A DNA stretch of 64,000 nucleotides. Source: Escherichia coli. GTDB lineage: Bacteria; Pseudomonadota; Gammaproteobacteria; Enterobacterales; Enterobacteriaceae. Below, in pieces: positions 40,601 through 49,600 of this stretch. Position 1 is the first letter of the stretch. Every line of letters starts with the position of its first letter. Location: the NCBI RefSeq assembly GCF_022846255.1, contig NZ_AP025682.1; one strand, 5' to 3'. Made by a program: the position numbers.

Positions 40601-43600
40601 GGCTGCGTCCAGTTTTTCCCACTCCTGCTCAGTGATATTTCCTTCGTTATCAATCGAAATTAAATCTGCATGGGCGCCTTGTGCCACTTTTTCAGCAACC
40701 AGTTTAGTGTGACCATATCCTGAATAATAAACCACAGCTATGTTTTGCATATAAATATCCTTTTTACTAATGAATGATTTTTTGAGGCAGGTTTTAAAGA
40801 TGTGGAGTATTATGCCTTGCAGATATTATTTAAACCATCAAATGATGAACATATTTTTTGAATGAGATAAACATAATATTCGAAGAAAAATGAATCTCGT
40901 AACGTAGTAATATCTAAAATAACAGTCTGTTCAGAGATGCTATAAATCAACAACACATTAATAAAGGACTACGTATGCAAGGCATTAAAATATATACAAT
41001 TCTAGCCTCTTCTCTTATATCTGGTAGTATTTTTGCTCAAACGGAAATTTCGACTGCAAATTCGTCTACAGTTAATGCAAGTTATGTTGAACCTTCAGCG
41101 GAAAAAATAATATCGCCAAGCGATAAACTCAATAACCTTTTTGAAAGAAATATGTCTCAGCCTTATATTTTACAAAAAATTGGCGAGAGAACTTATTATG
41201 TTCAACGCTATTTTTATTCCACTACGTTTTATGTCGGAGACAAAGGGGTTTTGCTGTTTGATGCTCCGGAGGGTCGCGGTAAATATTTATTACAGGCAAT
41301 TCGCGATGTGACTCCATTACCCGTAACAGCGCTGGTTTATTCTCATTACCATGTGGATCACATTGGCGATAGTCCATTTTGGAACGATGAGGCGAAGAAA
41401 GAAGGCGTGAATCTGCGTATTATTGCCAGTAAAGCCACTGCTGAAAAAATGCAATTTATGAACAGTCGCTTACCCGTCGCCACTCAGGTTTTAAGTAAAA
41501 AAGATGACCAGTTTAAATTTGAAAAGCAGACCATTGAATTACACCGATTTGTTAAAGCAGGACATACCGACGACCATTCTGTATGGTTGCTAAAACAGGA
41601 AAAAGTAGCTCACAGCCCGGATCTCCTGAATCCTGACCAACTGCCGATGATGGGCTTCGCCGTATCGGATACGTTGGTTTACCATGACAGTAATTTGCGT
41701 CAGGTTGAAATGCTTGACTGGAAATATTTTATTGGCGGGCATGGTAATATTGGTTCACACGATGATTTCAAATTTCAACGCCAGTTTCTTAATGATCTTA
41801 GGGATACGACAATTAAAGTCAGAAAAGAAGAAAGTTTTGGTAAATTTATGAATAAAACGGCAAATAATCATGCTGATTTTGCGCGAGCCCAGCGCGAAGC
41901 AATTATTAAGAAAGTAACTGAAGTATTACGTCCGAAATATGGCCATATGTATGGCTACGACGCATCTATGCCTGCTAATATCGAAATGGCAATAAGATTG
42001 GTCGGTTCTTATTACTAAGATAAAATCAACTTGCAAGAGACTGTAATTATATTGCAAAGTGAAAATTAACCTCGGTAGCGAGATATTACCGAGGTTAATA
42101 TTGGCATACATTACACCCTTATCAGGTACTTAAACGATACATCATATCTTATCTGGATTATTAGATGACGAGCCATACGCACCAGGTAATTAAGAATCCG
42201 GTAAAACCGAGAATGGTCGTTAACACTGTCCAGGTTTTCAGACCGTCTGCTACCGACAACCCCAGATATTTGGTCACAATCCAGAACCCTGAGTCATTAA
42301 TATGTGACGCGCCAAGCCCACCAAAGCAGGCTGCCAGCGTCACCAATACGCACTGAATCGGATTTAATCCCATCACCGCTTCTGAGAGTAACCCGCCGGT
42401 TGTCAGGATTGCTACGGTTGCTGACCCCTGCGATGCACGCAGCGCCAGTGAAATAATAAATGCGGCTGGTAACAGAGGCAGGTCAATCATTTGTAACATG
42501 TTGGCAAGGGCTTTACCGACGCCCGATTCCACCAGCACTTTGCCAAATACCCCTCCAGCACCAGTAACCAAAATCACTACCGCCGCAGTGGGAAGGGCAG
42601 AGCCCATAATGTAGCTGGTGTGTTGTAAGCTCCAGCCGCGACGTAAAGCCAATAACCAGAATGCCAGCACCAGCGCAATCATTAGAGCTACCATTGGTGA
42701 GCCGATCAACTGTAGCGTACCAAGCAGGGGATGCGAAGGCGGCATCAGTGTTGCAGAAACCGTACCCGCCATGATAATCGCGATAGGAATAACAATTAGC
42801 GAGGTGACCAGCGCGACGCCCGGTGGATTTATTTTATCGCTTAATTTTGTCGCGCCTTCCTCACTGGCCGGAGCCAGTTGCATCTGTTCCAGTACCTCGA
42901 CCGACATCGCATATTGGCGCTTATTGATTATTTTCGCTGCAAAGTAGCCAACAATCCCTACGGGAATAGAAATCGCAATACCGATGATGGTTAGCCAGCC
43001 GATGTCTGCGTGGAGTAACCCCGCTGCGGCGACAGGGCCTGGATGCGGCGGTACCGCCACGTGAACAGTGAGCATGATCCCAGCGACAGGCAGGCCAAAT
43101 TTGAGTGGTGATATTTTGGCAACCTTGGCAAAACCGTAAATGATTGGCGCAAGAATAATAAAGCCGACATCAAAGAAGACGGGAATACCGAGGAAGAACG
43201 CTGCCAGAGTCAGCGCAGCGATAGTTCGTTTGTCACCTAACTTGCGACTGAAATAATTAGCCAGTGACTCTGCACCACCAGAGTGTTCGATCATACGCCC
43301 CAGCATAGCGCCCAGACCAATAATAATAGTGACGGAACCAAGCACACCGCCCATCCCGGCGATCATCACTTTACCCACTTCGCCCGCCGGTATACCCGCC
43401 GCAAGTGCGACTAACAGGCTGACGAGGAGCAGAGCAACGAATGGTTGTACCTTTGCCTTGATGACCAGTAGCAACAGCATGATTACGCCAGCTAACGCAA
43501 TGCATAACAATGTAATTGTGGACATGGGAAACCCTGTCTGAAAGTTATAGTTAACCTACCCCATCCGTAGATGGGGGGATGTATGGGTACGTTGTAATTA

Positions 43601-46600: not shown

Positions 46601-49600
46601 TGCAAGCGCCATCGCTTCGGCTCCGGCAGCAATATGTACACCCGCTAACAACTGGTGGATAATTTTTACGGTCGAACCCAGTCCCGGTTCTGCTCCGATG
46701 CGATAAACTTTTCCGGCAACGGCTTCCAGCACGGGTGCTAGTCGTTCAAAGGCAATATCGCTACCGGAGGCCATGACAGTCATTTCACCGTTAGCGGCTT
46801 TTACCGCACCACCAGAAACCGGCGCATCCAGCATTTCCAGACCGAATCCAGCCAGAGCGGTAGCAATTTCTTGCGCATCAGCACTGGCGATAGTGGAAGA
46901 AACCATTACTGCCGTACCGGGTTTCAGATGTTGTGCAACGCCTTTTTCACCAAACAGCACCTGTTTAACCTGGGTCGCATTGACCACCAGCACCAGCAGA
47001 GCGTCCAGTTTTTCGGCAAACGTCGCGGCGTTATCAGAAACTCCGCAAGCACCAGCCTCTTTCAACGTAGCGCAGGCATTGCTGTTCAGGTCTGCGCCCC
47101 AGGTAGAAAGACCTGCGCGGACACATGACAGTGCTGCTCCCATTCCCATTGACCCTAAGCCAACGATACCGACATGAAACTCCGATCCCGTTTTCATCTG
47201 CTCTCCTTGTTAATTTAAGTGATATTTTGTTTGATGTTGTGAATATAAGCGCGGAAAGATAACGATATGGTGAGCTGATTCACAAAAATTAACATTGTGT
47301 GTTATTTTATGTGAACTAAGCGTTAGTTGCGCCGCGCACGTTTCGCAGGCAAATAGCGTAGAATGTCAGCAGGACAAAGGAAGGAGCAAAAGTTGATACC
47401 CGTAGAGCGTCGCCAAATCATCCTTGAGATGGTAGCTGAAAAAGGCATTGTTAGTATTGCTGAACTAACGGACAGAATGAATGTGTCACATATGACCATT
47501 CGTCGGGATTTACAAAAACTGGAGCAGCAGGGAGCCGTTGTGCTGGTGTCCGGGGGCGTCCAGTCTCCGGGACGCGTGGCGCATGAACCTTCTCATCAGG
47601 TAAAAACTGCGCTGGCAATGACGCAAAAAGCGGCTATTGGCAAGCTGGCGGCAAGTCTTGTTCAGCCGGGACGTTGTATCTATCTGGATGCGGGAACGAC
47701 CACGTTAGCGATTGCACAGCATCTGACTCACATGGAGCCACTCACAGTGGTTACTAACGACTTCGTTATTGCGGACTACTTGCTCGACAACAGTAATTGC
47801 ACAATTATTCACACTGGCGGCGCAGTGTGTCGGGAAAACCGTTCCTGTGTTGGGGAAGCCGCTGCGACCATGCTGCGTAGCCTGATGATTGATCAGGCTT
47901 TTATTTCTGCATCGTCATGGAGTGTGCGGGGGATCTCTACGCCAGCAGAAGATAAAGTCACGGTGAAACGGGCGATTGCCAGTGCCAGCCGCCAGCGAGT
48001 TTTGGTCTGTGATGCGACGAAATATGGACAGGTGGCGACATGGCTGGCGTTACCATTAAGCGAGTTTGATCAGATCATTACTGACGATGGTCTGCCGGAG
48101 AGTGCCAGCCGCGCGCTGGCGAAGCTGGATCTCTCTTTGCTGGTAGCGAAAAATGAATAATGACCTGCAATAACGCCGGGTTACTCATGCTTCACAGAAG
48201 AAGCATGAGACTACTTTATTTTATAAAATGACAGCCGCCCGCTTTTCGGCGATCCGGTATCTATATAAATCTGGTTAGCGAACGTCTGAATGTTATCAAA
48301 CATCATATGACCAAATATAAAGAAGTCGGCGCCGTTTATTTTTTGTAATTCGCTATTAAGTGATTTCTGCACACGATCAACAGGCCAGAGTAATTCGCTC
48401 TCCGCTATTTCTTTGCCAAACTGATACTCCTTCCCCGGATAATCTGCATGTGCGATGACATATTTTATGGTGTCGTTAGTGATTTCAATAATATGTGGAA
48501 GGTGATGGAATTTCAGCAACAGATCTATTGCCTCTTGTTGCTCTGAATCATTTAAATCGAAAAACCAGTCACCACCGCTGGCAAGCCACATATTTCCATC
48601 GCCAGTTTCGAATGCATCAAGCGCCATCGCTTCGTGGTTGCCTTTGACGGAGATAAACCAGGGCTGGTTTAACAGGCGCAGCACGTTAAGACTCTCGGGC
48701 CCACGATCGATGTTATCGCCTACCGAAATAAGTAAGTCGGTTTCAGGACAAAAAGAGAGTTGATGTAAGCGGGATTGTAATAATTGATAGTCACCATGAA
48801 TATCACCAACGGCCCATATATGGCGATAGTGATGGGCATTGATTTTTTGGTAGCGTGTAGATGGCATGGTTTTACCCTGTAAAATAAGCTTTCCTATTAT
48901 ACAGGGTATTTTTATTTGATTCGTCAGTTGTCGTTAATATTCCCGATAGCAAAGGACTATCGGGAATTATTATTACACCAGACTCTTCAAGCGATAAATC
49001 CATTCCAGCGCCTGACGCGGAGTCAGTGAATCCGGGTCGAGGTTTTCCAGTGCCTCGACCGCAGGCGAAGTTTCTTCCGGTACGGACAGCAAAGACATTT
49101 GTGTACCATCCACTTGCGTAGCAGCGGCGTTCGGCGAAATGCTTTCCAGCTCACGCAGTTTTTGCCGTGCGCGCTTAATAACCTCTTTTGGCACACCCGC
49201 CAGAGCTGCAACCGCCAGGCCGTAGCTTTTGCTCGCTGCGCCATCCTGCACGCTATGCATAAAGGCAATGGTGTCGCCGTGCTCCAGTGCATCGAGATGC
49301 ACGTTGGCGACGCCTTCCATTTTCTCCGGTAACTGGGTCAGCTCGAAATAGTGGGTAGCAAACAGCGTCAACGCTTTGATCTTATTTGCCAGATTTTCCG
49401 CACATGCCCACGCCAGCGACAGACCATCGTAAGTAGACGTTCCACGCCCGATCTCATCCATCAACACCAGACTATATTCGGTGGCGTTATGTAAAATATT
49501 GGCGGTTTCGGTCATCTCCACCATAAAGGTTGAACGCCCGGAAGCCAGATCATCCGCGGCACCTACGCGGGTAAAGATACGGTCAATCGGGCCAATCTCG

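Follow-up and report, generated by a model that had tools for sequence, protein, structure and literature searches.

A window of 64,000 nucleotides from Escherichia coli (contig NZ_AP025682.1 of RefSeq assembly GCF_022846255.1) carries the ygbI-ygbJKLMN locus at positions 42161-48160, and all coordinates given below are positions in this window. In our judgement the locus is likely an operon under the control of a repressor, by which the C4 acid sugar L-threonate would be broken down in four steps to dihydroxyacetone phosphate (DHAP). Reference annotation and literature already contain the gene cluster with its repressor and predicted pathway, and they also give ygbI a TTG start. The original prediction, made from the DNA alone, had placed an acid-sugar catabolic cluster between these same limits, which coincide exactly with the outer ends of the open reading frames (ORFs). 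The gene content, order, orientation and families that it described, including a divergent DeoR regulator, were likewise recovered from the ORFs and their Pfam domains.

42161-43525, minus strand: ygbN, GntP-family permease of 454 amino acids (aa), last gene of the operon (ORF; annotation of strain 536 and K-12)
43614-44390, minus strand: ygbM/otnI, predicted 2-oxo-tetronate isomerase of 258 aa, a xylose-isomerase-like TIM barrel (ORF, NCBIfam)
44395-45033, minus strand: ygbL/otnC, predicted Aldolase_II-type decarboxylase of 212 aa (ORF, Pfam, NCBIfam)
45030-46292, minus strand: ygbK/otnK, intact predicted 3-oxo-tetronate kinase of 420 aa, formerly DUF1537, with an SBD_N and an NBD_C domain (ORF, NCBIfam)
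46289-47197, minus strand: ygbJ/ltnD, predicted L-threonate 2-dehydrogenase (NAD) of 302 aa, first gene of the operon (ORF, NCBIfam)
47393-48160, plus strand: ygbI, DeoR-family repressor of 255 aa counted from TTG (NCBIfam; annotation of K-12 b2735 and strain 536)

Each of the six proteins was scored against the NCBIfam equivalog cut-off of its proposed function and against the cut-offs of paralogous functions. All six exceeded the cut-offs for the proposed functions, and their Pfam domains gave E-values from 1e-153 to 3e-16. YgbJ, with an NAD_binding_2 and also an NAD_binding_11 domain, scored 474 bits against a cut-off of 350 for NF043037 (ThreonDh), whereas it fell below the cut-offs for GarR/tartronate-semialdehyde reductase (2-hydroxy-3-oxopropionate reductase; NF008592, 199 versus 397, and also 186 versus 341) and for 3-hydroxyisobutyrate dehydrogenase (TIGR01692, 161 versus 292). 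It also matched the YgbJ-type structure 3g0o in the PDB (E=2e-148), and its Rossmann residues G13-x-G15-x-x-G18 and catalytic K178 are invariant among orthologues. YgbM scored 398 bits against 325 for NF043033 (OxoTetrIsom) and stayed under both hydroxypyruvate isomerase models (TIGR03234, 300 versus 353; NF007444, 243 versus 465); it matched PDB 1k77, named 'ygbM', over residues 1-258 with E=1e-176, and none of 15 orthologues varies at E143, D178, H181, H202, Q204 or E240. YgbL has an Aldolase_II domain (PF00596, residues 13-190) and scored 335 bits against 250 for NF043034 (OxoTetrPhDc), far below cut-off for the FucA, AraD and MtnB models (at most 104 bits for FucA models, whose cut-offs are at least 250). 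The structure 6vop was matched over residues 1-212 (E=3e-138), 6voq is likewise of YgbL type, and the metal motif H98-x-H100 is invariant in 19 orthologues.

The kinase YgbK has two domains, SBD_N (PF07005, residues 4-228, E=4e-75) and NBD_C (PF17042, residues 253-411, E=8e-43), and scored 596 bits against 350 for NF043035 (OxoTetrKin), while remaining under the cut-offs for D-threonate kinase (NF047819, 133 versus 450) and 3-oxo-isoapionate kinase (NF042436, 109 versus 700). It aligns end to end with three solved structures, at 80% identity to that of Salmonella (3dqq, residues 1-418), 56% to HI1011 of Haemophilus influenzae (1yzy, 4-419) and 47% to that of R. eutropha H16/Cupriavidus necator (5dmh, 4-417). 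Its C-terminal L-K-S-G-N-F-G...F-F residues (L400-G406, F410 and F411), invariant in 22 orthologues, are present in the window. YgbI combines HTH_DeoR (PF08220, 16-69) with DeoRC (PF00455, 86-241) and scored 478 bits against 400 for the equivalog NF040890. YgbN is covered from residue 5 to 451 by GntP_permease (PF02447, E=1e-153) and over its entire profile (1-454 of 454) by NF007332 (PRK09821; 825 bits versus 524), with the gluconate, idonate and DsdX models all under cut-off; it is presumed from these family matches to be an acid-sugar:H+ symporter. Comparison with orthologues, which the original prediction had proposed as its check, thus supports orthology, through the NCBIfam equivalogs as well as through the identities of OtnK to solved structures.

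The paralogues Hyi, GarR/GlxR and FucA share the folds of the window's enzymes and similarity to them is detectable, but the scores lie far under the paralogue cut-offs (the Hyi and GarR scores given above, and 81 of 400 for FucA). Labels of Hyi, GarR and FucA type for b2736, b2738 and b2739 have been listed as typical errors of over-propagation (PMC12506659). A different misnomer affects YgbM, which NCBIfam NF007441 (PRK09989) names "HPr family phosphocarrier protein"; the Prokaryotic Genome Annotation Pipeline (PGAP) spreads this name, and we met it in every PGAP-annotated E. coli record opened. Since YgbM is a 258-aa TIM barrel in the family of PDB 1k77 and OtnI, this product name is wrong.

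Gene identity, intactness, orthology, synteny, purifying selection, the ygbI start codon and the motif statistics come from the present analysis; what the enzymes do chemically, which substrate is transported, what the inducer is and which sequence serves as operator we infer by homology, and the pathway would run as follows. YgbN would import the acid sugar, a step that is suggested by its family. LtnD (YgbJ) would oxidise L-threonate at C2 with NAD+ to 2-oxo-tetronate, OtnI (YgbM) would convert this to 3-oxo-tetronate, OtnK (YgbK) would phosphorylate the latter at C4 with ATP, and OtnC (YgbL) would decarboxylate the phosphorylated product to DHAP and CO2. The five genes would be read as one minus-strand unit, and YgbI, translated from the TTG at 47393, would repress both this operon and itself through the 195-bp spacer until the inducer is present, probably by binding at repeated TGTTAWWTWWWGTGAW motifs.

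Zhang et al. reportedly defined, in 2016, a four-step pathway for L-threonate as well as D-erythronate (LtnD/DenD, OtnI, 3-OtnK and 3-OtnC) in R. eutropha H16 and further bacteria. All four of these enzyme families are represented in the window, in one cluster with genes for a transporter and a DeoR regulator; that pathway includes DenD, whereas the window has no gene for it. L-threonate is found in human plasma and urine. It is also a breakdown product of ascorbate (vitamin C), as shown for plants (PMC12540250). In two later papers, which cite Zhang et al. 2016, the pathway is summarised as leading from L-threonate through LtnD, OtnI, OtnK and OtnC to DHAP, and the organisms in question are said to be unable to grow on L-threonate once its genes are deleted (PMC12540250, PMC12994016). 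Within the cluster we found no dedicated gene for a D-erythronate dehydrogenase, and only the L-threonate dehydrogenase model was matched. With this single dehydrogenase the cluster matches the L-threonate branch, and use of D-erythronate is not implied. Hence, of the L-threonate/D-erythronate organisation originally proposed, the L-threonate half is upheld by the equivalog scores and the D-erythronate half is not.

Gene spacing and the control region are in line with coordinated expression of the five genes. The pairs ygbJ/ygbK and ygbK/ygbL each overlap by 4 nt (ATGA), the ygbL/ygbM gap is 4 nt and the ygbM/ygbN gap is 88 nt; these overlaps and short gaps argue that ygbJKLMN form one transcript whose genes are translationally coupled. 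In K-12, chromatin immunoprecipitation with exonuclease treatment (ChIP-exo) gave one YgbI site only, in the ygbI-ygbJ spacer and overlapping the ygbJ promoter, and deletion of ygbI derepressed all of ygbJKLMN, as seen by RNA-seq (PMC8464067). The corresponding spacer of the window contains the following elements.

47198-47392, no strand: divergent control region between ygbJ and ygbI, 195 bp (from the gene limits)
47208-47223, plus strand: candidate YgbI operator half-site 1, TGTTAATTTAAGTGAT, adjoining the ygbJ ribosome-binding site (motif match)
47279-47294, minus strand: candidate YgbI operator half-site 2, which reads TGTTAATTTTTGTGAA on this strand (motif match, inverted repeat)
47300-47315, plus strand: candidate YgbI operator half-site 3, TGTTATTTTATGTGAA (motif match, inverted repeat)

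For the 16-bp motif TGTTAWWTWWWGTGAW, 0.08 matches would be expected in 64 kb; the window has three exact ones, all of them within this spacer, and a weaker, degenerate copy occurs at 47228. Half-sites 2 and 3 together form an imperfect palindrome of 37 bp, with arms of 16 nt that are 88% complementary and a gap of 5 nt. Conservation of the half-site 1 block extends to Serratia, Pluralibacter and Pantoea, the half-site 2 block is the best conserved part of the spacer across six genera, and half-site 3 is conserved in Escherichia and partly in Entomohabitans. We therefore propose the TGTTAWWTWWWGTGAW repeats as candidate operators of YgbI, a proposal drawn from repetition and conservation of the motif.

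A functional precedent comes from Brucella, where the DeoR homologue VdtR acts as repressor of a homologous cluster; it occupies several sites in the ltnD promoter, and both L-threonate and D-erythronate elicit a response from it (PMC10580937). Like YgbI, it is a DeoR-type repressor, and its repression is relieved by C4 acid sugars. The Brucella regulator lies inside its operon whereas that of the window is divergent, and the Brucella cluster adds denD and a transporter of the major facilitator superfamily (PMC10580937), in place of which the window has a GntP-type transporter. VdtR is the best experimental model for the probable action of YgbI.

One difference between the K-12 reference and the window lies in the kinase gene. 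The K-12 cluster (b2735-b2740) has the same locus, gene order and neighbours as the window, its proteins are 97.6-99.3% identical, and there is next to no difference in the ygbI TTG start or in the spacer. Unlike the window, K-12 has a ygbK of 388 aa followed by a pseudo-intergenic gap, and it lacks a 2.1-kb flavodoxin/metallo-beta-lactamase (MBL) segment next to ygbN. The difference in ygbK comes from a short homopolymer.

45141-45145, no strand: run of five G (five C on the coding strand) at codons 383-384 of otnK, intact in the window (alignment to K-12)

K-12 MG1655 has four C instead of five, and this 1-bp deletion leaves 388 aa instead of 420 and then a gap of 91 nt to ygbL, while in the window and in strain 536 the 420-aa ORF overlaps ygbL. 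Of the 74 residues that never vary among 22 orthologues, the lost tail holds 11, with L-K-S-G-N-F-G and F-F among them, and the motif is also conserved in the kinase structures of Salmonella, Haemophilus and R. eutropha H16.

The distribution of the two alleles was surveyed by megablast with a 50-mer carrying five C (C5) and a 49-mer carrying four (C4), which have no 28-nt word in common. C5 was found in 3807 genomes and C4 in 371, with about 410 otnK-positive genomes falling outside both counts owing to nearby single-nucleotide polymorphisms. Among the 100 C4 matches listed, names were of K-12 type (MG1655, W3110, DH5alpha, DH10B, C600, J53, MC4100, O16:H48) and genomes measured 4.46-4.79 Mb; the exceptions in this list were BLR(DE3) and one clinical isolate of 5.1 Mb, whose match was only 98%. 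BLR(DE3) presumably carries a K-12 recA-region transduction. The frameshift allele thus appears to be confined to K-12-type laboratory genomes. In two PGAP-annotated records of this type (an MG1655 assembly and BLR(DE3)) the short product is called "3-oxo-tetronate kinase", with no pseudogene flag, and in the searchable literature, EcoCyc and UniProt notes not included, we found no link between ygbK and a frameshift; the four papers that contain both words deal, by title and abstract, with other subjects.

The lesion also bears on how the operon has been described. The K-12 operon structure is given as ygbJK, ygbLM and ygbN, and Gao et al. invoked "indirect" control of ygbLM and ygbN (PMC8464067); in a metatranscriptome study, a ygbK-ygbL co-transcript spans two RegulonDB operons (PMC4168707). 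The RegulonDB split between ygbJK and ygbLM probably reflects the frameshift lesion and not biology, and the lesion explains both the co-transcript and the "indirect" control that was invoked.

Conservation of the cluster was followed in a synteny scan with one genome per species, which returned 21 loci with a relative of the kinase. A divergent DeoR gene with ltnD-otnK-otnC-otnI-gntP recurs in E. albertii, Serratia marcescens, Pluralibacter, Entomohabitans and Pantoea septica, and the same six-gene arrangement is also present in Anaerobiospirillum, in Succinivibrio and in the genome of an uncultured member of the Succinivibrionaceae. The five-gene operon occurs on a Desulfovibrio contig, with no regulator detected within about 600 bp of upstream sequence, and remoter loci retain otnK-otnC with otnI present or absent. 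Against E. albertii, the ratio of nonsynonymous to synonymous substitution rates (dN/dS, Nei-Gojobori) is 0.019-0.067 for all six genes, with the kinase at 0.067. The cluster is intact and under purifying selection. Several substitutions are specific to the window (H143Y in OtnK, D305Y in YgbN, T42P in OtnI, and Q111E and S116N in OtnC), and a pathway-disabling effect of these was rejected since every one of the sites varies among orthologues.

Several observations weigh against assigning the locus to L-threonate. In the accessible literature we found no biochemical demonstration of the pathway in E. coli itself, and the growth phenotypes reported there for E. coli concern tartrate and never threonate. 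Our account of which orthologues have been characterised rests on secondary citations. The absence of otnK from 838 of 5426 complete E. coli genomes makes the pathway dispensable. A scan for sigma-70 promoters over 42000-48300 gave 7 sites versus 5.7 expected, which is not above background, and the promoters of ygbJ and ygbI were therefore not placed. Finally, K-12 becomes able to grow on L-tartrate when ygbI is deleted (PMC8464067), and both lines of an m-tartrate evolution experiment gained ygbI mutations with overexpression of ygbJKLMN (PMC6452873). All this tartrate work was done in K-12, in which the kinase is frameshifted, and so it says little on the complete pathway; it does suggest some promiscuity in the cluster.

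From these phenotypes one could suppose that the physiological substrate of the E. coli cluster is meso- or L-tartrate, or some different small hydroxy-acid, and that the tetronate annotation has been over-propagated from other genera. YgbJ would then oxidise the acid, and YgbM and YgbL would process the keto-acid without the kinase; indeed, since the tartrate phenotypes appear in K-12, whose kinase has lost its invariant C-terminal motif, there must be a route independent of the kinase. Nevertheless we consider this explanation unlikely. The authors of the evolution study themselves treated the tartrate activity as promiscuous, or 'underground' (PMC6452873). The wild type does not grow on tartrate and loss of the repressor is needed, so that tartrate is apparently no inducer of the operon, and the need for repressor loss points to a promiscuous activity. 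Moreover, one would not expect an irrelevant kinase to be under strong purifying selection (dN/dS 0.067), to be preserved intact in 3807 genomes or more and to be coupled in translation to the adjacent genes, and all four enzymes pass the equivalog cut-offs for tetronate functions.

Far less credible is that the cluster is a cryptic, decaying remnant without current function in E. coli. Such decay could be read from the position of the locus in the mosaic mutS-rpoS region, from the genomes that lack otnK, from the absence of ygbN in "pattern I" strains of O157:H7 type (PMC4209514) and from the K-12 frameshift. All six ORFs of the window, however, are full length relative to their profiles, dN/dS values are 0.02-0.07 against E. 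albertii, the frameshift allele was seen, among the matches listed, only in genomes that look K-12-derived, and regulated expression is documented (PMC8464067). A three-step bypass, which is credited to Guo et al. 2024 and consists of LtnD, 2-OtnK and 2-OtnC (PMC12540250), shares with the window LtnD as its first enzyme, a DUF1537-family kinase and DHAP as end product, but was rejected because it lacks OtnI and uses an F_bP_aldolase-domain decarboxylase, while the window has OtnI and an Aldolase_II decarboxylase and is thus of the four-step type. L-threonate catabolism in four steps remains the preferred explanation of the locus.

The ygbI ORF from its first ATG, 47363-48160 on the plus strand, encodes 265 aa, and the TTG at 47393 is in frame, 10 codons further on, and gives 255 aa. 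The original prediction chose this TTG, and RefSeq (K-12 b2735, 255 aa, and uropathogenic E. coli (UPEC) 536), the profile start, the orthologue codons and a Shine-Dalgarno sequence all agree with it.

47379-47387, plus strand: Shine-Dalgarno sequence GGAAGGAGC serving the ygbI TTG (duplex with the 16S 3' end, -8.0 kcal/mol)

The curated YgbI profile starts at residue 11 of the ATG-initiated ORF. The codon homologous to TTG 47393 is ATG in eight orthologues, GTG in Serratia, and TTG in E. coli, E. albertii and Entomohabitans, and all orthologues but one start with M-I-P (those with ATG or GTG here with M-I-P-x-E/K-R or M-I-P-E-Q-R); the exception is the uncultured Succinivibrionaceae orthologue, with CTA at this codon and ATGs further upstream. 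The GGAAGGAGC duplex is in the top 2.4% of positions in the region, and the Shine-Dalgarno sequence is conserved in E. albertii and Entomohabitans. Translation from ATG 47363 has in its favour that this is the first canonical start of the ORF and is present in E. coli and E. albertii; we think it most improbable and rejected it on orthologue codons and Shine-Dalgarno energies, as it has a duplex of only -2.6 kcal/mol, the regional median, Entomohabitans has ATT in its place and yet keeps the TTG and its Shine-Dalgarno sequence, and in-frame stops occur within the 10 upstream codons in Pantoea, Enterovibrio and Symbiopectobacterium. Initiation at TTG 47393 is thus supported, as already annotated.

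The locus is collinear with K-12 b2735-b2740, and is flanked by rpoS on one side and pphB-mutS on the other.

39031-40023, plus strand: rpoS (ORF listing)
40199-40750, minus strand: flavodoxin-like gene (ORF listing)
40975-42018, plus strand: gene for an MBL-fold hydrolase of 347 aa (ORF listing)
48184-48209, no strand: putative bidirectional terminator hairpin with a 10-bp stem between the convergent ygbI and pphB (consensus scan only)
48211-48867, minus strand: pphB (ORF listing)
48973-51534, minus strand: mutS (ORF listing)

When 5426 complete E. coli genomes were queried with the 8.9-kb region, 5416 gave a match. Among those matching best, at 99.5%, are strains of phylogroup B2 and extraintestinal pathogenic E. 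coli (ExPEC) such as UPEC 536, where RefSeq has an identical set of genes, and by this sequence similarity the source strain is B2-like. The gene otnK was found in 4588 of the 5426 genomes. That the cluster adjoins a variable segment, as had been predicted, holds: positions 40070-42172 (2.1 kb) have no alignment in K-12, which has 59 bp there between rpoS and ygbN. This segment has a low GC content (0.38-0.43) and is carried by about 1041 of the 5426 genomes. Its flavodoxin-fold product is WrbA-like; its 347-aa MBL-fold protein has a hydrophobic N-terminus that resembles a signal peptide when read by eye, and is weakly similar to VarG-family B1-like metallo-beta-lactamases (165 bits versus a cut-off of 750). 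In the o454(ygbN)-nlpD region, the segment corresponds to the B2/ExPEC-associated "pattern III", and "pattern I" strains, of O157:H7 type, lack ygbN entirely (PMC4209514). The frequency of otnK is consistent with such strains, and the ygb cluster itself belongs to the variable mutS-rpoS region.

Other features of the surroundings may be recorded here. PphB differs from its K-12 counterpart at 16 of 218 residues (92.7% identity), versus the 97.6-99.3% identity of the neighbouring ygb proteins, a difference which suggests that a recombination or mosaic boundary lies close to ygbI/pphB; in the mutS-rpoS region this is to be expected. RpoS codon 211 encodes Leu in the window but Arg in K-12 and in UPEC 536 (R211L), and position 33 is E, as in strain 536, versus Q33 in K-12. 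Scans with Rfam (gathering thresholds) and for tRNA genes found nothing in or near the cluster; elsewhere in the window, a sok antitoxin RNA (RF01794) at 28537-28694, with 112 bits versus a gathering threshold of 59, indicates a toxin-antitoxin locus of hok/sok type. A few matches of the ygb region in complete E. coli genomes lie on plasmids, at three places for the 8.9-kb query and at one for the otnK query. Papers retrieved for ygbK and ygbJ are, by title, mostly on resistance plasmids with blaSHV or blaNDM. In Klebsiella, a ygb fragment travels with blaSHV on such plasmids.

Our results are of modest use for curation: the K-12 reference ygbK (b2737, 388 aa) is frameshifted, YgbM is misnamed, and an operator candidate for YgbI is available. 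Without the invariant C-terminal motif in its ygbK, K-12 is a poor model for the pathway. It is possible, if somewhat short of probable, that the intact otnK gives natural E. coli, including B2/ExPEC strains, a real capacity to use L-threonate, a trait that K-12 would lack and that may for this reason have gone unnoticed.

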